Sequence record: PZ452595.1
Direction: 5' to 3' (one strand)
Length of the DNA stretch: 64,000 nt
From: a phage
Shown: positions 430-63,745 of the stretch, one piece after another
How positions within the stretch are numbered: position 1 is the stretch's first letter
How the letters are laid out: each line of letters starts with the position of its first letter
Notes under the pieces: generated by a model
Database searches by the model: none
Told to the model about the DNA's origin: nothing
The model's input: the letters and a program-made list of their open reading frames with translations, nothing else
Translations under genes and position numbers: made by a program

Positions 430-1065
430 TCACAGTTCAGATGCTACAGTGATTACTGCTTCAATGTTTTCTGCCGAGCGTTTAATGTCAAGATACACAT
501 TACCGTTTTTAGCGATTTTACATGACATTCCAATATCAGTAAATTTCTGAATATGATGTTCCATCATTTTGTATCCAAAAATTCGCATATTTCCATTGTT
601 GTTAATTTCAAAATTACGAATTCCGTGAGTACGTTTTTCTAAAATAGCGAGATAGTTACTACGATAAGTTTCAACCTTTTTAAGAACAAATCCATTTTCA
701 TCTAAAAGTTTTAACATGAAGTCTTTATCTTCTTCCATATCGGAAGTAATTTCGCGAGCTTTACGAGTTGCTCGTTTTTTCAGCAGTTCCGGAGCATTTT
801 CTTGTGCGTATAAAGTTGCTGCATTTGAAATAATATCCTGAGCTTCGCCTGTAATGATTAATCCATCACCAGATTTCTCTACCAGGCCTTTTTTAATCAA
901 TACCCCAATATTACTATTAACTACTGCGTTACCTAAATCTGGATGCACTTCACGAACTTCTGCAGCTGTAATGAAATCTTTCTTAGCAATAGTAATTAAA
1001 ATCGCAGCAGTTTTTTCATTCAGAACATCGTTAGAAGCTTTGATGATGTAAGTTACTTTAGACAT
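430..1065 (-). CDS. motA: MotA, activator of middle transcription
   Basis: 211 aa; N-terminus MSKVTYIIKASNDVLNEK matches T4 MotA by recall; SD GGAG upstream. Confidence 0.9.
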   Translation of the reverse strand: MSKVTYIIKASNDVLNEKTAAILITIAKKDFITAAEVREVHPDLGNAVVNSNIGVLIKKGLVEKSGDGLIITGEAQDIISNAATLYAQENAPELLKKRATRKAREITSDMEEDKDFMLKLLDENGFVLKKVETYRSNYLAILEKRTHGIRNFEINNNGNMRIFGYKMMEHHIQKFTDIGMSCKIAKNGNVYLDIKRSAENIEAVITVASEL

Positions 1066-1106: not shown

Positions 1107-1136
1107 ATAGTACCACAGTATGCTTTGGTTGTAAAC
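1107..1136 (-). promoter_or_regulatory. T4-type early promoter upstream of motA
   Basis: Minus strand GTTTACA - 17 nt - TACTAT; conserved cassette. Confidence 0.6.
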
Positions 1137-1166
1137 CGTTTTGTGAAAAATTTTTGAAATAAAAAA

Positions 1167-1186
1167 GGGAGAGCCGAGGCTCTCCC
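1167..1186 (-). terminator. GC-rich hairpin after small gene downstream of 52 (terminator/RNA-stabilising)
   Basis: gggagagccgaggctctccc inverted repeat. Confidence 0.5.
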
Positions 1187-1191
1187 TAAAA

Positions 1192-1341
1192 TTACTGCTC
1201 GAACGCGATAACTATCGTGATAACACGTTGAATTCCGAACGCAAGAAGACCTCCTGCTACGGCTGGAACAACGCCTAAACCCGCCAGTAAAATGCTACCG
1301 GATACTAATGCAGCGCTTGTAATACCAATGAATGGACTCAT
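1192..1341 (-). CDS. small hydrophobic protein (~49 aa)
   Basis: Hand-translated; ATG overlaps gene 52 stop (ATGA); not in ORF track (<60 aa). Confidence 0.4.
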   Translation of the reverse strand: MSPFIGITSAALVSGSILLAGLGVVPAVAGGLLAFGIQRVITIVIAFEQ

Positions 1342-2666
1342 TTGATTTCCTCTAAATCTTTAGTGTATTCAGTAACTACATCAGTAGTTTTCCAATATTC
1401 ATTTTCTTCTTTTTTAGCTTTAGCTTCTTCAGCAAGTTTCTTTGCTTCATCGGAAGTCATATGAAAAATATTCATTCCAACTAGTTTATCAACATAAGAA
1501 GAATACATATCGATTTTCGAAAGTTCTTCGGTCAGTTCTTTACGAGTTTTACCCTGCACAACAATTTCACCTGAAATTACTTTCTTAATGAAATGTGCCT
1601 TGGCAAAGGCTAAACGAAAAGCTGACTCAGTTTCTTTAATTTTGTTATCAATTCGTTTTTGGACATAAGTTTTACGAACTTCAACGAAGTCTTTAATTAA
1701 ATCAACCACGTTATCGTAAACTTGTAGTTTTCCTTTCTCATTAATAACCGTAATATTCTGAGAACGACGCTCAATCAACCCGAAGTCTTTCATAATTTTT
1801 GCATGGCGTTCTTCTTCGTTATCGCTCAAAGAGTATTCTTTGCGGAATTTAACTTTGAAGCCAAAACCATGCTCACCACAAGCATCATCCCATGTAATGA
1901 AGCCTTTATCTTCAAGTGGGTCTAAGATTTTACTCACGTAAGTTTCACGATCATACTTATACGGAATCTCAGTGATATGCATTTGAGTTCGTGAAGTAAA
2001 CTTATATGTTCCACGAATTTCATATTGCCCATCAATTTCAACGACTTCACCACGAAATTCTGGGAATTCTACCTTCGGTTTAGTTACTTTCTTTCCTTGA
2101 AGAGCTTGTAGTACAGCTTTCTTGACAGAAGAAACACTATGAGGAAGAATGTAAGTTGCATAACCAGTTGCAATACCGGAAACGCCATTAAGAAGAACAG
2201 TAGGAATAATAGGCAAATAGAAAGCAGGCGGAATGTGTTCTTTATCTTGATGTACTGGAGCATATTCAGTATCTTTATATACGTTATAGAAATTTTTACT
2301 TACACGAGCAAAAATATAACGACTTGCCGCTGCCTTTTGGACAGTACGAGAACCGAAGTTTCCTTGACCATCTAACAGAGGAAAGTTATTATTCCAAGTG
2401 TTAGCCATCAAAGCTCCCGCATCTTGCGCAGAGTTTTCGCCATGGTGATATCCAAGGTCCGCTACACCACCTGCAATAGAAGCGAGTTTGTGAAACTTAT
2501 CTTTATTTCCTCGTGCCAAATCAAGAGCTCGAGCAATAACAAATCGTTGAACTGGCTTAAATCCATCAATCATATTTGGAATGGCACGATTTTCAACCGT
2601 GTACATAGCATAAGCCAATGCTTCATTATCAATGATACTTTTTAAATCGCGATTATTCAGTTGCAT
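1338..2666 (-). CDS. 52: DNA topoisomerase II medium subunit gp52 (GyrA-like)
   Basis: 442 aa as in T4 gp52; position between motA and ndd. Confidence 0.9.
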   Translation of the reverse strand: MQLNNRDLKSIIDNEALAYAMYTVENRAIPNMIDGFKPVQRFVIARALDLARGNKDKFHKLASIAGGVADLGYHHGENSAQDAGALMANTWNNNFPLLDGQGNFGSRTVQKAAASRYIFARVSKNFYNVYKDTEYAPVHQDKEHIPPAFYLPIIPTVLLNGVSGIATGYATYILPHSVSSVKKAVLQALQGKKVTKPKVEFPEFRGEVVEIDGQYEIRGTYKFTSRTQMHITEIPYKYDRETYVSKILDPLEDKGFITWDDACGEHGFGFKVKFRKEYSLSDNEEERHAKIMKDFGLIERRSQNITVINEKGKLQVYDNVVDLIKDFVEVRKTYVQKRIDNKIKETESAFRLAFAKAHFIKKVISGEIVVQGKTRKELTEELSKIDMYSSYVDKLVGMNIFHMTSDEAKKLAEEAKAKKEENEYWKTTDVVTEYTKDLEEIK

Positions 2667-2670
2667 AAAT

Positions 2671-2811
2671 TTACCATACTAGTGAATGTAGTGCCATAAT
2701 AACATCAGAAATGAAAAGCACGACTTGAATTAATCCGAACATTACTCCATAATATAGTGCTACCAATAAAGTAGCAAGGGCTAATGAATAGCCCAAGATT
2801 TTCTTAATCAT
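2671..2811 (-). CDS. small membrane peptide (~46 aa)
   Basis: Hand-translated MIKKILGYSLALATLLVALYYG...; ends 4 nt before gene 52 start. Confidence 0.4.
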   Translation of the reverse strand: MIKKILGYSLALATLLVALYYGVMFGLIQVVLFISDVIMALHSLVW

Positions 2812-2971
2812 TAGTAGATAACAACACAAATGTTAAATATGCACACATACCCTGGGCTAAAGCTTGTGAAAACACACTGCTAGCATCGATCAGATAGTTA
2901 AAACACATGCTACTATCCAACAAATAAATGAAATAACTCCTAATAATTTTGCGATATTCATAATATTCTCC

Positions 2972-3127
2972 TCAACTATTTTTAGAACCAATGTACGCGA
3001 ATAATGATAAAATCGCTAATACGCCCTGAGCTGATGCTTGTAAAAATACTGAAGTTTCTCCAGTTATTACTGTTCCGATGCATAAAAAGAACCAACAGAA
3101 AAAGGCTATACCGTGAACAAATTTCAT
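2972..3127 (-). CDS. small membrane protein (~51 aa), possibly ac (acridine sensitivity)
   Basis: Hand-translated MKFVHGIAFFCWFFLCIGTV...; size and position fit T4 ac by recall. Confidence 0.4.
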   Translation of the reverse strand: MKFVHGIAFFCWFFLCIGTVITGETSVFLQASAQGVLAILSLFAYIGSKNS

Positions 3128-3139
3128 ATTTTCCTCACT

Positions 3140-3155
3140 GGCGTCCGAAGACGCC
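3140..3155 (-). terminator. UUCG-tetraloop hairpin
   Basis: ggcgtccgaagacgcc; minus-strand loop UUCG. Confidence 0.5.
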
Positions 3156-3214
3156 TTTGGTTTTAAGATTGTTACGATAGAACTGCATCACATGTTCGTT
3201 ATGGAAATTACTCA

Positions 3215-3658
3215 TTAATATGCCTGCAAAACAAATTTAAAGTTATCAGCCAACATACGGTTCATTTCTTCAAGTGTTTGATACTCAGAATGATGATTAC
3301 GAGTAAACGCCAAAGCTAACTGACCTTTTCCAAATCCCGTCGTCAGAGGTTTCATCTTAGAAGCAGGCAGATAAAACACTGCGTATACCATATTGTTATT
3401 TGCAATAGTACGCGCAAGTTGAGACCGGCGTTGACGAATATGACTTAGAACTGCACTGAATCCTTGCTTAGAACGCTGATTACCTACATAAAATCGTGCA
3501 GATACGCATGAACCATCGAATTCACTTACTAAAAAGTAAAATCCAGGTTTAGACAAAATGTCTTTATGCGGAGTTCCCAAAAACCATTCACCACCCTTGA
3601 TTGTACCAATAACAGTAGCGCCTGCATCATTCAGATCAGTAACAGTCATATATTTCAT
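3215..3658 (-). CDS. ndd: Ndd, host nucleoid disruption protein
   Basis: C-terminal 147 aa (from [10 protein letters not shown]) match T4 Ndd by recall; SD GAGGAAA before ATG at 3658; track ORF extends to 3706. Confidence 0.8.
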
Positions 3659-3718
3659 ATTAATTTCCTCTAAATTATTTTCTACTCCAAGGCCGCATGA
3701 ATACACACGGCCATTAAA

Positions 3719-3934
3719 TTAATCGTCGCAGTCGACGCTCAATTCCCAAAACTCTTCTACAGTATAAGTTTCAGTATCATTTTCAATACAGAAACGTTCA
3801 TTACTATTATTTTCTAAAGTAGCGTTAACTGTCATTTTCTCGCTAGTGCTCTTAAGAGGTGAAATACGAATTAACTGATCACCGTTATCTAAACAAAAAA
3901 TTTCACCAACTTTTACATCTTTAAAGATTTTCAT
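3719..3934 (-). CDS. hypothetical protein (71 aa)
   Basis: ORF track; SD-like GAGG upstream. Confidence 0.55.
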   Translation of the reverse strand: MKIFKDVKVGEIFCLDNGDQLIRISPLKSTSEKMTVNATLENNSNERFCIENDTETYTVEEFWELSVDCDD

Positions 3935-4049
3935 AATTCACCTCAGGGAGTATAAAATCCAAACGCAGTTGTTGACCATCCCATCCAATACGGAAAATTT
4001 GCACCAATGTAAAACATAAGAATATAAAACCAACCGCTCAGCAAATTCA

Positions 4050-4268
4050 TCATTTTACACCGTTCCAAATTGTTTCAACCACAGATTTTAAACCATTTTG
4101 ATGAATATCAATTCCGACTACTGTCATCAAATAGATTCCAACTACAACTGAACCTAAGGCAAAAATCAGCATGAAAATGAATAAAGCCGGAAAAATATTA
4201 TCGAAAAACCATTCAATAAATGTAAAAGCACTGCGTTTACGCTTCATATTTTCCTCACATAAATCCAA
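4050..4268 (-). CDS. small membrane protein (72 aa)
   Basis: ORF track; long hydrophobic segment FPALFIFMLIFALGSVVVGIYLMTVVGI. Confidence 0.55.
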   Translation of the reverse strand: MDLCEENMKRKRSAFTFIEWFFDNIFPALFIFMLIFALGSVVVGIYLMTVVGIDIHQNGLKSVVETIWNGVK

Positions 4269-4368
4269 AGTAAACGTTTAATACATCAATCATTAAAACG
4301 ATTGGGAATATACTCAAAACTATTAGTATTATAACTACATTCCATATAGCTTTAACAATCTTTTTCAT
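4255..4368 (-). CDS. small membrane peptide (~37 aa)
   Basis: Internal ATG after conserved GGAGGAAC SD; track ORF (to 4464) is a read-through of the promoter cassette. Confidence 0.4.
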   Translation of the reverse strand: MKKIVKAIWNVVIILIVLSIFPIVLMIDVLNVYFGFM

Positions 4369-4396
4369 TTTCTGTTCCTCCGTAGTTGATAGGGTA

Positions 4397-4426
4397 ATAG
4401 TACCACGGAAGAACAGTCTTGTAAAC
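4397..4426 (-). promoter_or_regulatory. T4-type early promoter
   Basis: GTTTACA - 17 nt - TACTAT followed by conserved 5' UTR and GGAGGAAC SD. Confidence 0.55.
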
Positions 4427-4432
4427 AACTTT

Positions 4433-4531
4433 TTAAAAATATTCGTAATAAATGTGAATACCAACTACTACCGCTGAAACTTGCACAACCCACCACGCAC
4501 AAGCAATAAGTACAGAATTCAAAATTTTCAT
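4433..4531 (-). CDS. small hydrophobic peptide (~32 aa)
   Basis: Hand-translated MKILNSVLIACAWWVVQVSAVVVG...; ATGA coupling to upstream peptide ORF. Confidence 0.35.
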   Translation of the reverse strand: MKILNSVLIACAWWVVQVSAVVVGIHIYYEYF

Positions 4532-4614
4532 AATAACCTCATTACAAAAGTAAATGTTAAACAAATTACTGGAATACTAATTAACCAAACAAAACACCAC
4601 CACAGTGAACTCAT
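4528..4614 (-). CDS. small hydrophobic peptide (~28 aa)
   Basis: Hand-translated MSSLWWCFVWLISIPVICLTFTFVMRLL; coupled to 8-codon leader ORF starting ~4637. Confidence 0.3.
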   Translation of the reverse strand: MSSLWWCFVWLISIPVICLTFTFVMRLL

Positions 4615-4684
4615 AGTTCAATCTCAGCGATTTTCATTTTATTCTCCAAATCCGTATCAGTAGTTGTCAGTAGTTGATAGTTGT

Positions 4685-4714
4685 ATAGTACCACGGTCCT
4701 TGTGGTATGTAAAC
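4685..4714 (-). promoter_or_regulatory. T4-type early promoter
   Basis: GTTTACA - 17 nt - TACTAT just downstream of denB. Confidence 0.55.
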
Positions 4715-4729
4715 CATTTTGTGAAATTT

Positions 4730-5287
4730 TTAAATGGAAAGATACCATCCGTTGTAGTTGCTTTTTCTTACAACCTTACGAAGGTCTTCTCTATCACCGA
4801 TGAACTTCGGAGTGTACTGGATGACACCTGGATGAATTTCTTTAGTGTTGAATATAATTATACAGTCAGCGACTTGATGATTTAGAATGGGCCCTAGATT
4901 TATTCCAGAACCGTATGGATACTCTCCGCTGCATCCTGTTGTTACAGAAATCCAACGTGAGTCAGTTTGATGTGTCTTAACTTCTACACGAAGCCCGCAG
5001 TATTTTGGATGCGCCAATACATCCCATGCATATGTGTACGGATCATCGACATCTTCTTGGCCTTTATTGACATATCCGCTTAGCCAATCTGCCACAAAAA
5101 ACTCTGCGTACACAGCGATACGGCATCTTTCGATAACTTCTGCCTTATCCTGATTTGGGTTCTGTTTTAAAGAGTATCTTGCAGTATCAGCAATTTTGAC
5201 CTTCATTTCACTAGTCAAGTCACTGTTCGATAGGGTAAATGTCGGAATCTGAAACAGTCTCTGTAAACCCGGATTCGTTTTCTGCAT
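4730..5287 (-). CDS. denB: DenB, endonuclease IV
   Basis: 185 aa as T4 DenB; position next to rIIB. Confidence 0.8.
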   Translation of the reverse strand: MQKTNPGLQRLFQIPTFTLSNSDLTSEMKVKIADTARYSLKQNPNQDKAEVIERCRIAVYAEFFVADWLSGYVNKGQEDVDDPYTYAWDVLAHPKYCGLRVEVKTHQTDSRWISVTTGCSGEYPYGSGINLGPILNHQVADCIIIFNTKEIHPGVIQYTPKFIGDREDLRKVVRKSNYNGWYLSI

Positions 5288-11517: not shown

Positions 11518-11694
11518 TTACCCTTTAAGTAAGTCGTAAAAACCACCATTCACATGCTTAGGAGCAGAAGGCCGACGAGTAGACAAACGATGACATTTAG
11601 GGCAAACATCATTTTCTCGTTCAGAAATCTTTTTAATTTTTTCATATTCATGCCCACAATCTTCGGATTGGCATTTATAATCATACATTGGCAT
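11518..11694 (-). CDS. FmdB-like zinc-ribbon protein (~58 aa)
   Basis: Hand-translated MPMYDYKCQSEDCGHEYEKI...CPKCH; two CxxC pairs; not in ORF track. Confidence 0.5.
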   Translation of the reverse strand: MPMYDYKCQSEDCGHEYEKIKKISERENDVCPKCHRLSTRRPSAPKHVNGGFYDLLKG

Positions 11695-22663: not shown

Positions 22664-22864
22664 ATGGTACAAAAATTAATGGCACTTGTTGATGCCATAA
22701 AAGGTAATAAGAAACGTATAGCTTTTACTATTTCTGCTATGGTAGGAATTTTACTCTGGAACTTTATTCTATCACCTGTTGCGATTGCACATGGTATTAA
22801 TATTCCAGTAGTTACTCTTGATACATTCGTAGATTTAGCATTTGCTTTAGTTGGGTTAATTTAA
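22664..22864 (+). CDS. small predicted membrane protein (66 aa), plus strand
   Basis: Perfect SD AAGGAGGA 6 nt before ATG; hydrophobic core; convergent with gene 61 (stop codons overlap). Confidence 0.5.
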   Translation: MVQKLMALVDAIKGNKKRIAFTISAMVGILLWNFILSPVAIAHGINIPVVTLDTFVDLAFALVGLI

Positions 22865-23891: not shown

Positions 23892-24056
23892 TTACTCTTC
23901 TTTTTCTTTAGATTCCTCTTTTTTCTTTTTAGGAATCTGTTCAGGACCTTTATTTACTACAGCGCCTGATGTTGTTCCAGTAGAGATATTTTCAGGATTA
24001 CCACCTGAATCTCCAGCGACCATATCTTCTTTGATAAATTCTTTATATGTTTTCAT
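23892..24056 (-). CDS. small acidic/lysine-rich protein (~54 aa)
   Basis: Hand-translated MKTYKEFIKEDMVAGDSGGNPEN...; ends 2 nt before gene 61 ATG. Confidence 0.45.
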   Translation of the reverse strand: MKTYKEFIKEDMVAGDSGGNPENISTGTTSGAVVNKGPEQIPKKKKEESKEKEE

Positions 24057-46246: not shown

Positions 46247-46462
46247 TTAAGCCTTTTTATCAAGAACAGCATTCAGCTTGTTAGTAATTTTATCCAGACG
46301 CTCATTGAACTCACTAGAAGATAAGCCCTTTTCTGGAGAAATTAAACTAATAACGAAAAATACAACAATAAAAGGAATAAGAAAAATAGCTCCAACTGCC
46401 ATAAACAGAAAGAATGTTACAGTTGTAAGAAAATCAGCTAAACCTTTACGAAATTTATACAT
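46247..46462 (-). CDS. small membrane protein (71 aa)
   Basis: ORF track; TM segment VTFFLFMAVGAIFLIPFIVVFFVISLI. Confidence 0.5.
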   Translation of the reverse strand: MYKFRKGLADFLTTVTFFLFMAVGAIFLIPFIVVFFVISLISPEKGLSSSEFNERLDKITNKLNAVLDKKA

Positions 46463-60503: not shown

Positions 60504-60678
60504 TTAAAGTTTCAATATAAGAATCAAGATTTACTTTAGCTTCTTCCATAAGAGTTTTGTATTTAATCTTGTTAGCATGTCCGGAGAAAGCTGATTCATC
60601 AATAACTGTTGCTGTATGAACAGCTTTGCTATATGTTTCAATTAATTCTCTTAATTTAAAAGCCTGCTCACTTGTCAT
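60493..60678 (-). CDS. small helical protein (61 aa), member of small-protein family
   Basis: ORF track; SD GAGGAG; MTSEQAFKLRELIETYSKAV. Confidence 0.5.
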   Translation of the reverse strand: MTSEQAFKLRELIETYSKAVHTATVIDESAFSGHANKIKYKTLMEEAKVNLDSYIETLIGE

Positions 60679-60782
60679 TACATACTCCTCTGAATCATAT
60701 CAATAATGTTATTCACCAAATTATAAGTAAACATTGGGTAATTATATTGAATCATCACATACACAACAAACAAAACTTTCAT
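60678..60782 (-). CDS. small hydrophobic peptide (~34 aa)
   Basis: Hand-translated; AAGGAG SD; stop overlaps next ATG (TAATG); follows early promoter 60811-60840. Confidence 0.4.
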   Translation of the reverse strand: MKVLFVVYVMIQYNYPMFTYNLVNNIIDMIQRSM

Positions 60783-63393: not shown

Positions 63394-63575
63394 AAGGAAT
63401 TTATATAATCAATGAGTTCTTGTTCTTTATTATCGAATTCTTTAGAAAGTTCTTCGTATTCGTCAGTATTAAAAGGACCGCATTCATTACAAACTTTTTC
63501 CAATTCACTATTTTTATCCATAACTTCGTGGATAAGAGAAAAGAGTTTGTCTTTTTGTTCTTTGCTTAGGCTCAT
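63390..63575 (-). CDS. small helical protein (61 aa)
   Basis: ORF track; MSLSKEQKDKLFSL; ATGA coupling. Confidence 0.5.
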   Translation of the reverse strand: MSLSKEQKDKLFSLIHEVMDKNSELEKVCNECGPFNTDEYEELSKEFDNKEQELIDYINSL

Positions 63576-63745
63576 ATATTAATTTCCAGAAGTTTTAAAA
63601 TAATTCGCTTTTGCTTAAATATTTCCATAGTTAAATGATCAGTATCTTTTTGACCAATTCCAATGGCAAAACCTTTATTAGCAGCGAGTTCAATTAAATT
63701 ATCAAGTTCACGTGACACTTCATATTGTAACTCAGAACTATTCAT
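63572..63745 (-). CDS. small protein (~57 aa)
   Basis: Hand-translated MNSSELQYEVSRELDNLIEL...; ATGA overlaps at both ends. Confidence 0.4.
   Translation of the reverse strand: MNSSELQYEVSRELDNLIELAANKGFAIGIGQKDTDHLTMEIFKQKRIILKLLEINI

Follow-up and report, generated by a model that had tools for sequence, protein, structure and literature searches.

A minus-strand block of small hydrophobic protein genes around ndd in a T4-like coliphage corresponds to catalogued early genes of T4

The DNA analysed here, a 64,000-nucleotide stretch of sequence record PZ452595.1 that we refer to as the window, belongs to a T4-like coliphage (Tequatrovirus) whose nearest public relatives are ~96% identical. 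We located the following features in the neighbourhood of ndd, with pooled dN/dS given for the called reading frame:

1107..1135, minus strand: third early promoter-like site, TTTACA-17-TACTAT with extended TG, in a cassette at 1089-1153 directly after the terminator
1166..1187, minus strand: intrinsic terminator hairpin, ending a long early transcription unit
1192..1341, minus strand: motA.1 orthologue, 49 aa, Gly/Ala-rich and hydrophobic; phrog_3487, E 2e-29; dN/dS 0.25
2671..2811, minus strand: 52.1 orthologue, 46 aa, hydrophobic; Pfam DUF7396, E 3.5e-23; phrog_3595, E 1.2e-25; dN/dS 0.125
2804..2961, minus strand: orthologue of T4 ac, frameshifted; repaired protein phrog_2501, E 3.3e-21
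2972..3127, minus strand: Ac-family paralogue, 51 aa, predicted two-helix hairpin; phrog_2501, E 4.9e-26; dN/dS 0.10
3135..3215, minus strand: stp, 26 aa, hydrophilic; Pfam Nuclease_act, E 2e-21; 100% identical to T4 Stp
3943..4053, minus strand: ndd.2 orthologue, 36 aa, aromatic-rich and hydrophobic; phrog_4135, E 1.7e-24; dN/dS 0.10
4050..4247, minus strand: ndd.2a orthologue, 65 aa; Pfam DUF7248, E 6.5e-19; phrog_2401, E 3.5e-29; dN/dS 0.085
4255..4368, minus strand: ndd.4 orthologue, 37 aa; phrog_3098, E 2.9e-21; dN/dS 0.18
4397..4425, minus strand: second early promoter-like site, TTTACA-17-TACTAT with TG, in a cassette at 4379-4443, upstream of ndd.4
4433..4531, minus strand: ndd.5 orthologue, 32 aa, hydrophobic; phrog_5011, E 1.6e-25; dN/dS 0.04
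4528..4614, minus strand: ndd.6 orthologue, 28 aa, one hydrophobic helix; phrog_8851, E 1.6e-17; dN/dS 0.15
4611..4637, minus strand: 8-codon ORF, MKIAEIEL, with its own Shine-Dalgarno (SD) sequence (GGAG) and an ATGA overlap with ndd.6
4685..4713, minus strand: early (sigma-70) promoter-like site, TTTACA-17-TACTAT with extended TG, in a cassette at 4667-4731

The original prediction had proposed clusters of tiny hydrophobic peptide genes, missed by a 60-aa ORF threshold, at 2671-4637. The minus strand holds the ORFs of 46, 51, 37, 32 and 28 aa and of 8 codons as they had been listed, but a 72-aa call among them was mis-started; three genes were absent from that list, namely ndd.2 (3943-4053), stp (3135-3215) and the frameshifted ac orthologue (2804-2961). 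A further small ORF that it had named, 1192..1341, proved to be the motA.1 orthologue. Profile searches returned full-length PHROG family matches for all of the listed small ORFs (E 1e-17 to 1e-29), NCBI phage records already contain every one of their exact protein sequences, and the small genes of the window correspond one-to-one to those of the T4 annotation (NC_000866). T4 carries this set (52.1, ac, stp, ndd.2, ndd.2a/'ndd.3', ndd.4, ndd.5, ndd.6 and motA.1) with the same gene order, strand, sizes, junctions and promoters, the order being identical both for ndd.2, ndd.4, ndd.5 and ndd.6 in the ndd-denB interval and for motA.1 in the 52-motA interval; the small proteins of the two phages share 90-100% amino-acid identity, and on the T4 map these genes form one of the clusters of predicted membrane proteins. 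They were thus missed by the first-stage 60-aa filter, a cut-off that conceals about a dozen real genes within one 5-kb stretch, but not by the existing T4 annotation. Judged from their sequences, the small ORFs near ndd are real and conserved but previously catalogued T4-type early membrane-protein genes, and finding them again is a rediscovery of little discovery value, since the T4 map has shown these genes for decades, PHROG and Pfam families cover them, and hundreds of phage genomes have them annotated.

Alignment of the individual families revealed conserved positions in several of them. Ndd.6 is 100% identical to T4 Ndd.6, and its residues W, C, W, I-P, C and F do not vary among 11 distinct aligned sequences; ndd.5 is limited to 11 close (Tequatrovirus) loci among 42 related loci; and Ndd.2 shows the conserved motif F..G.N.PYW.G. 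Ndd.4, found in 31 of the 42 loci, has a Lys-rich N-terminus followed by one transmembrane helix and carries the conserved motif K.IWN...IFP.V..ID. One related locus, L043, encodes an Ndd.4 homologue of identical length that is matched by the Pfam family Phage_T4_Y16N, together with homologues of motA.1 and ac that match Phage_T4_Y16H and Phage_T4_Ac, respectively. The 52.1 protein, present in 37 of the 42 loci, matches PF24129 (DUF7396) at 81.9 bits, against a cut-off of 27, over residues 1-46 of 46.

The mis-started call was a 72-aa ORF at 4050-4268 opening on TTG. We place the start instead at the ATG at 4247, which follows a GAGG, gives a 65-aa protein (4050-4247) and is annotated or conserved in 10 close relatives. 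The protein matches PF23906 (DUF7248) over its full length with 68.1 bits (cut-off 27), and comprises an N-terminal KRKR, one long hydrophobic segment and a conserved C-terminal tail, GLKSVV.xIWNG, within which GLKS...W.G is invariant across 16 distinct sequences. A 1-base difference in the T4 reference splits the gene into 'ndd.2a' (40 aa) and 'ndd.3' (26 aa), whereas the window form is intact, as is the 65-aa ndd.2a of an independently sequenced T4 clone. These comparisons indicate that T4 'ndd.3' is an artefact ORF and that the real ndd.2a encodes 65 aa. A wide protein search for cellular homologues of Ndd.2a returned only 8 clusters and, because all of them are T4-like phage or phage-derived records, provides no link to cellular proteins.

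The 51-aa ORF at 2972-3127 had been tentatively named ac. It does belong to the Ac family, but as a paralogue with only 42.5% identity to T4 Ac; the true orthologue is the adjoining gene at 2804-2961, whose repaired protein is 92-96% identical to T4 Ac. The two copies are clearly related (hhalign probability 99.7%). T4 lacks the extra paralogue, which occurs at 100% amino-acid identity in loci L002-L006 and is missing in L001, L007-L010, L033 and L043; many Tequatroviruses carry two Ac paralogues. The orthologue has lost 1 base between 2890 and 2891 (ATCTG[T]ATCG), which introduces a TGA after codon 23, and the C-terminal 28 codons past the deletion run on in the -1 frame to 2804. This deletion was found in 0 of 459 matching phage records, making it private to this genome among them, and the truncated 23-aa product has no copy in a collection of 15 billion proteins. 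Programmed -1 frameshifting or recoding was rejected on the grounds that the deletion is private among the 459 records and that no slippery heptamer lies at the site. The phage would be classed as an ac frameshift mutant, whether of natural origin or only at the sequencing level, and this yields a testable prediction about acriflavine resistance. The adjacent stp encodes an anticodon-nuclease activator and restriction inhibitor.

At 4611-4637 the original prediction had placed an 8-codon leader. MKIAEIEL consists of the start codon and the last 7 codons of an 87-aa gene (phrog_2390) that is complete, at the same place, in 10 of 11 close relatives, while T4 and the window carry the 8-codon form; a conserved leader is therefore not what this ORF represents, and a regulatory leader peptide was rejected because the short form occurs in T4 and the window only. 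In both phages the deletion, at the ndd.6/denB junction, is clean and in-frame and falls between AATGAAA repeats within the 87-aa gene, and this internal deletion, rather than an exchange at the PeSL cassette, is the source of the difference in gene content there. The 8-codon ORF is an in-frame deletion remnant of the 87-aa gene, present also in T4. OQ174500, a phage with an exactly matching Ndd protein, carries the 87-aa gene along with only one ac, which is intact. The annotation of the block is tidied with respect to the 'ndd.3' artefact, the length of ndd.2a, the 8-codon deletion scar and the two Ac paralogues.

Conservation of the reading frames across relatives had been named beforehand as a check on the coding status of these ORFs, and it was borne out. 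Reading frames and ORF lengths are kept in as many as 37 of the 42 related loci, and the lengths are preserved even where the Ndd of the locus is only 46-65% identical. Pooled dN/dS, a measure whose pairwise counts rest on non-independent pairs, was 0.04-0.25 in the called frame versus 0.6-4.9 in the two shifted frames, compared with 0.095 for ndd as a control gene. Family-specific polar and aromatic motifs are conserved as well, for example GLKSVV.xIWNG in Ndd.2a, K.IWN..P..D in Ndd.4, WC..W..IP..C in Ndd.6 and SV.SQ..AQ in Ac. Since lengths are kept and dN/dS is low in the called frame alone, we conclude that the ORFs are protein-coding and under purifying selection, which upholds the view of them as genuine tiny hydrophobic peptide genes; that they are genuine, known protein-coding genes is close to certain. 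We also considered expansion of a single hydrophobic peptide family. An all-against-all hhalign comparison gave a probability of at most 9% per pair, the two Ac copies excepted, so that the families are otherwise mutually unrelated; a K-x-[IV]-V-x-x-IWN pattern seemingly common to the Ndd.4 N-terminus and the Ndd.2a C-terminus was likewise not significant (2.4%).

The early promoter cassettes behind which the genes had been said to sit are real, with three copies of a ~65-nt repeat (1089-1153, 4379-4443 and 4667-4731), but 52.1 and the Ac genes do not lie directly behind one. All three promoter-like sites fit the PST/T4 PeSL promoter consensus TTTACW-N17-TAYWAT (PMC4122927), and PeSL cassettes of T4-type phages, like the copies in the window, flank small variable ORFs (Arbiol et al. 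2010, PMC2839356; Comeau et al. 2014, PMC4122927). The segment 1107-1187 forms a complete PeSL (stem-loop and promoter) upstream of motA; a scan that finds only G+C-rich hairpins with T runs gave no stem-loop by the copies at 4379-4443 and 4667-4731, and Rfam at E<=1 gave only sub-threshold matches, at the terminator hairpin. The genes lie in one minus-strand unit that begins at the promoter-like sites at 4713-4685 and 4425-4397, takes in ndd, stp, both ac genes, 52.1, gene 52 and motA.1, and ends with the terminator at 1187-1166; within it, the site at 4685..4713 would serve the mini-ORF together with ndd.6 and ndd.5. RNA-seq of T4 assigns the transcripts of 52.1, ac, stp, ndd.2-ndd.6 and motA.1 to the 'early' class (PMC9697503 Table S2), and on that basis host RNA polymerase would transcribe the small genes in the first minutes of infection. 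T4 proteomics detected none of these small hydrophobic proteins (Class_P = NA; PMC9697503 Table S2), a result that is expected from peptide size and hydrophobicity and is still a gap. A search of one paper collection found no ribosome-profiling study of T4 infection, and the main texts of the CRISPRi-ART and HIDEN-SEQ papers make no mention of per-gene data on ndd.x or 52.1.

The hydrophobic character of the peptides was confirmed, with GRAVY values of 0.85-1.87 and, in each listed small protein, a 19-residue window with a Kyte-Doolittle mean of at least 2.1. Their predicted location in the inner membrane is highly probable; there the peptides would insert as single helices or hairpins, and an N-in orientation is expected of those whose N-terminus is rich in Lys/Arg. 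The T4 annotation labels some of the small proteins 'outer membrane' or 'periplasmic', these labels also being predictions. The explanation that we favor with considerable confidence is that the ORFs are annotated, non-essential early T4-type genes for very small inner-membrane proteins.

How such proteins would act is a matter on which we are more guarded. Each peptide would bind a particular host envelope protein and alter its activity, as the E. coli proteins AcrZ (which binds AcrB) and MgrB (which binds PhoQ) do. The analogy is functional only: like AcrZ and MgrB, the window proteins have 28-65 residues that form one hydrophobic helix or two and include a handful of conserved polar or aromatic residues, but they are phage-encoded and expressed solely during infection. 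Ac alone among them has an action that is documented in part: cells infected with T4 or expressing Ac accumulate acridines (bioRxiv 10.1101/2025.06.30.662393; PMC13250531), the sensitisation to acriflavine, with resistance on loss of the gene, being documented for T4 ac only. Ac has been proposed, in a preprint reporting phenotypes and a predicted structure, to block AcrAB-TolC, the pump bound by AcrZ (bioRxiv 10.1101/2025.06.30.662393). PDB sequence searches with Ac, Ndd.2a and 52.1 gave no significant match, and PADLOC defence models gave 0 matches. We suggest tentatively, and with somewhat more doubt than belief, that the small proteins modulate particular host membrane proteins and do not perturb the membrane in a general way.

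Alternatively, the peptides may be general membrane-active toxins of type I toxin or holin-like character that depolarise or permeabilise the inner membrane without specific targets, aiding host shut-off or excluding superinfecting phage. Hok- or TisB-type peptides are of comparable size and hydrophobicity. Many small T4 immediate-early genes are host-lethal once cloned (PMC6071114), and a leaky membrane could also explain why cells that express Ac become more sensitive to acriflavine and ampicillin (bioRxiv 10.1101/2025.06.30.662393). We nevertheless consider this unlikely, as eight mutually unrelated families each keep specific polar or aromatic residues and Ndd.2a has a conserved non-membrane tail, all of them features that generic membrane disruption would not need, and the proteins show neither a holin-like charged C-terminus nor late expression. 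Expression, moreover, begins in the first minutes, at a stage at which T4 still needs an energised membrane. Holins and antiholins in the strict sense were rejected on the early T4 transcripts, the hydrophobic or aromatic C-termini and the neighbours ndd, stp, denB and gene 52.

Returning to specific modulation, its furthest form, which we offer as a rather unlikely speculation, would be that the block encodes at least 8 unrelated micro-proteins, each specifically inhibiting or modulating its own machine in the host inner membrane; efflux pumps, enzymes of phospholipid synthesis, transporters and membrane-bound sensors of defence systems are examples of such targets. T4 sa-delta-9, from which the whole block is deleted, lacks the phage-induced rise in phosphatidylglycerol synthesis and has a halved burst (PMC6071114), and such a battery, if it exists, would jointly explain both phenotypes. 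In this phage, the natural knockout of the T4-type ac beside an intact paralogue would, in that event, show the Ac copies to be target-diverged or redundant.

The junctions between the genes bear on a second alternative, in which the short ORFs act mainly in cis by relaying ribosomes along a polycistronic early mRNA towards genes that include ndd and 52, the peptides being incidental. Neighbouring ORFs form a dense chain: some overlap through ATGA or TAATG, and others are separated by gaps of 4-10 nt, with the stop of one ORF overlapping the SD of the next. Translational coupling is therefore possible. Of the ATGA start/stop overlaps that had been claimed, four pairs stand (4637-ORF/ndd.6, ndd.6/ndd.5, ndd.2a/ndd.2 and gp52/motA.1), but the 4268/4255 pair is an artefact of the wrong TTG start. 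Genes 52.1, ndd.6, stp and 52 have no SD of their own; the start of 52.1 and the last part of the ac frame share 8 nt (ATGATTAA), and the 52.1 stop (2671) lies 4 nt before the start of gene 52 (2666) on the same strand, an arrangement shared with T4. The 8-codon remnant, despite losing 79 codons, retains its SD, ATG and ATGA junction to ndd.6 in both T4 and the window. A pure relay, however, needs merely an open frame, yet the amino-acid sequences are under purifying selection and contain invariant residues. The Ac phenotype, too, is at the protein level, in that a G38R substitution confers resistance and plasmid expression is effective in trans, and gene 52 can be supplied independently by a middle promoter with a MotA-box-like element that lies within 52.1 (2720-2696), making a primarily cis-acting role improbable.

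The weakest alternative, by which the frames are open by chance in spacer or regulatory DNA of AT-rich and T-rich composition (PeSL, hyperplastic regions) and yield no functional products, gains from the frequency of small hydrophobic ORFs and from the proteomic non-detection, but is extremely improbable and already effectively refuted by the length conservation and the low dN/dS confined to the called frame, alongside the conserved motifs, SD motifs, coupled junctions and full-length family matches for all ORFs. Those two measures are the deciding evidence for coding, whereas an open frame combined with hydrophobicity does not exceed chance in AT-rich DNA, as the six frames of the 64-kb window contain 41 ATG-ORFs of 25-75 aa with KD19 >= 2.0 and the first 6.5 kb alone hold 91 ORFs of at least 20 aa. 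An SD-like motif accompanies 9 of the 41 hydrophobic ATG-ORFs, and five of these nine fall in the 1.2-4.6 kb region.

Database matching of a 2.1-kb region returned 571 phage records, nearly all of them Escherichia, Shigella and Yersinia T4-like phages (Tequatrovirus), and the first 25 kb of the window gave the same picture. As the best matches to the 2.1-kb region were 95-97% identical, the window represents a relative of T4 and not the T4 reference itself. Every gene between 1 and 6 kb lies on the minus strand; names and order were assigned against the T4 annotation, and the terminators come from a hairpin scan.

5368-5351, terminator hairpin
4730-5287, minus strand, denB
4611-4637, minus strand, 8-codon ORF (by comparison with the T4 annotation)
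4528-4614, minus strand, ndd.6
4433-4531, minus strand, ndd.5
4255-4368, minus strand, ndd.4
4050-4247, minus strand, ndd.2a
3943-4053, minus strand, ndd.2
3719-3934, minus strand, ndd.1
3215-3658, minus strand, ndd
3135-3215, minus strand, stp
2972-3127, minus strand, Ac-family gene (by comparison with the T4 annotation)
2804-2961, minus strand, ac, frameshifted
2671-2811, minus strand, 52.1
1338-2666, minus strand, gene 52
1192-1341, minus strand, motA.1
1187-1166, terminator hairpin
430-1065, minus strand, motA

All of the ORFs listed in the original prediction were found in the window, and their peptides are as strongly hydrophobic as it claimed (GRAVY 0.85-1.87; top 19-residue hydropathy windows 2.15-3.06); their neighbours ndd, ndd.1 and stp are hydrophilic. 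One start was revised: the proposed 72-aa ORF at 4050-4268 rests on a TTG overlapping ndd.4, whereas the ATG at 4247, which has GAGG upstream and is used or conserved in ten close relatives, gives 65 aa. The genes are laid out as an operon in which ATGA overlaps join the 8-codon ORF to ndd.6, ndd.6 to ndd.5, ndd.2a to ndd.2 and gene 52 to motA.1; ndd and stp share a TAATG overlap, ac and 52.1 overlap by 8 nt, and the remaining junctions are 4-10-nt gaps with the stop codon overlapping the next Shine-Dalgarno (SD) sequence. The anticipated early promoter cassettes are also present, as three copies of a ~65-nt repeat (1089-1153, 4379-4443 and 4667-4731), each containing a promoter-like TTTACA-17-TACTAT with an extended TG that fits the consensus TTTACW-N17-TAYWAT of the promoter-early stem-loop (PeSL) cassettes in the PST/T4 pair (PMC4122927). 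Separately, a MotA-box-like middle promoter, TGCTTTTCA-N12-TATTAT, lies at 2696-2720 (minus strand) within the coding region of 52.1, shortly before gene 52 begins; this putative promoter would permit gene 52 transcription independent of the upstream early unit.

An ORF and hydrophobicity are not by themselves beyond chance. Across its six frames the window holds 41 ATG-ORFs of 25-75 aa that include a strongly hydrophobic stretch; only 9 also carry an SD-like motif, five of them within 1.2-4.6 kb. The decisive test was a comparison of 42 related loci, located via Ndd at 46-98% identity; annotated phage records supplied 6 of them and IMG/VR the other 36. By tblastn, 52.1 was present in 37, ndd.4 in 31, ndd.6 in 26, ndd.2a in 21, ndd.2 in 18, the Ac family in 16, ndd.5 in 11 and motA.1 in 10, with near-constant lengths across loci (25 loci, for example, encode a 46-aa 52.1, and another 10 a version of 44-45 aa). 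Pooling Nei-Gojobori counts across pairs with 80% identity or more, which are non-independent and make the values descriptive, gave dN/dS of 0.04-0.25 in the called frames (ndd, 0.095) vs 0.6-4.9 in the +1 and +2 frames of the same alignments, a contrast that holds for all eleven genes and marks purifying selection. Frame conservation in relatives, the check proposed at the outset, was thus observed, with lengths kept and dN/dS low in the called frame only, and we treat the reading of these ORFs as open by chance as excluded. We also noted that 52.1 is 87-93% identical in a clade of nine loci (L011-L017, L035 and L041) where Ndd is only 60-64% identical, far stronger conservation than in neighbouring genes; because synonymous change is frequent (pS 0.29), this constraint acts at the protein level.

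The ORFs are real, and they are known small early membrane-protein genes of T4-type phages; ac itself sits in one of three T4 clusters of predicted membrane-protein genes (bioRxiv 10.1101/2025.06.30.662393, citing Miller et al. 2003). All have full-length PHROG matches (E 1.6e-17 to 2.1e-29), Pfam assigns 52.1 to DUF7396, ndd.2a to DUF7248 and stp to Nuclease_act, and precomputed Pfam on one relative adds Phage_T4_Ac, Phage_T4_Y16N (ndd.4) and Phage_T4_Y16H (motA.1). The exact amino acid sequences of the nine intact small proteins are all in NCBI phage records, and the four other small ORFs originally listed are likewise known.

11518-11694, FmdB-like zinc ribbon gp39.2
23892-24056, gp61.1
60678-60782, MobD.2
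63572-63745, RB32ORF110c-type protein

The added value is modest: gene models were corrected, the 8-codon ORF was explained, an Ac paralogue was recognised, and a private frameshift was found in ac whose phenotype can be tested. Several database entries for the peptides at 1192-1341, 3943-4053, 4255-4368, 4433-4531 and 60678-60782 carry misleading propagated names, such as 'naphthalene 1,2-dioxygenase', 'flagellar motor protein MotA', 'transcriptional regulator' and 'molybdopterin-guanine dinucleotide biosynthesis protein MobD' for peptides of 28-49 aa. Two more small hydrophobic ORFs with SD-like motifs, 46247-46462 (minus strand, 71 aa) and 22664-22864 (plus strand, 66 aa), also have exact counterparts in public phage records, where they are labelled hypothetical or putative membrane proteins.

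By hhalign no family is related to another, the Ac pair excepted, and in alignments every family conserves its own polar or aromatic positions.

52.1: YYG; LF..DV...SL.W
Ndd.4: K.IWN; IFP.V..ID
Ndd.6: WC..W...IP..C..F, with two invariant cysteines
Ndd.2: F..G.N.PYW.G
Ac family: W......T......SV.SQ..AQ
Ndd.2a: poorly conserved membrane segment, then nearly invariant C-terminal GLKSVV.xIWNG

In Ndd.6, a 28-aa helix, the two cysteines lie 11 residues apart and, with W, W and I-P, are invariant across distant relatives. Residues 8-11 of Ndd.5 form a lipobox-like L-I-A-C, preceded by a segment very short for a signal peptide; the protein's 'outer membrane' label probably traces to this motif.

In T4, all these genes have early transcripts, and the small hydrophobic proteins were undetected by mass spectrometry (PMC9697503 Table S2). 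Ac makes cells more sensitive to acriflavine, whether they are infected or merely express it; its loss gives resistance, and blocking of AcrAB-TolC has been proposed (bioRxiv 10.1101/2025.06.30.662393; PMC13250531). With the T4 deletion sa-delta-9, which spans 52.1 through denB, the phage no longer stimulates phosphatidylglycerol synthesis and its burst is halved (PMC6071114). We tentatively favor a model in which, within minutes of infection, the peptides would insert into the inner membrane, each modulating one specific host envelope protein. That they are general membrane-active toxins seems rather unlikely, and a purely cis role as translational relays is improbable. PDB sequence searches with Ac, Ndd.2a and 52.1 matched no solved structure, defence-system models and Rfam families gave no match, and every hit of a wide protein search with Ndd.2a was a protein of T4-like phages. 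Our literature search found neither a T4 ribosome-profiling paper nor per-gene functional data for ndd.x or 52.1.

The 51-aa ORF at 2972-3127, originally suggested to be ac, shares only 42.5% identity with T4 Ac; the true orthologue lies directly downstream at 2804-2961, and the two are clear paralogues (hhalign 99.7%). The upstream paralogue occurs in 5 of the 11 close relatives and in the window phage, whereas T4 lacks it. One T is missing from the orthologue (ATCTG[T]ATCG, between 2890 and 2891); codon 23 is consequently followed by a TGA, and the last 28 codons run on in the -1 frame. Since this deletion is shared by none of 459 matching phage records, does not fall in a homopolymer and gives a 23-aa product absent from every database searched, it represents either a private mutation or an assembly error. 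As 52.1 lacks an SD and its start codon falls within the 3' end of ac, the frameshift may also lower 52.1 translation. Should the deletion be genuine, the phage would be expected to resist acriflavine, provided that the adjoining paralogue does not take over.

The presumed 8-codon leader at 4611-4637 is instead a deletion scar in which the SD, the ATG and the coupled junction happen to survive. Ten of the 11 close relatives (L002-L010 and L033) carry an 87-aa gene (phrog_2390) ending in NEMKIAEIEL and ATGA-coupled to ndd.6; among the compared loci, the sequence between two AATGAAA direct repeats is absent in the window and T4 only, which share the same remnant upstream of ndd.6, a start codon fused to the final seven codons of that gene.

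The T4 reference reads ATGAACGT, whereas this phage, ten relatives and a T4 clone sequenced independently (OL964735; 99.87% identity across 3.9 kb) have ATGAAGCGT. One G is thus missing just after the start codon in NC_000866 (6433-6629) vs the window (4050-4247) and the clone (3007-3204), and through this loss the 65-aa gene is broken into a 26-aa 'ndd.3' in the wrong frame and a 'ndd.2a' cut down to 40 aa. 'ndd.3' therefore appears to be an artefact ORF, one that persists in RefSeq and omics tables. Yersinia phage PST holds intact ndd.5 and ndd.6 at 3658-3836 (97-100% identity), unannotated in its record. The PeSL example described as an 'exchange of ndd.4/.5 in T4 for ORF268/269 in PST' (PMC4122927, Fig. 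6A legend) may partly reflect annotation gaps and deletion of ORF268 in T4, perhaps with no cassette swap.
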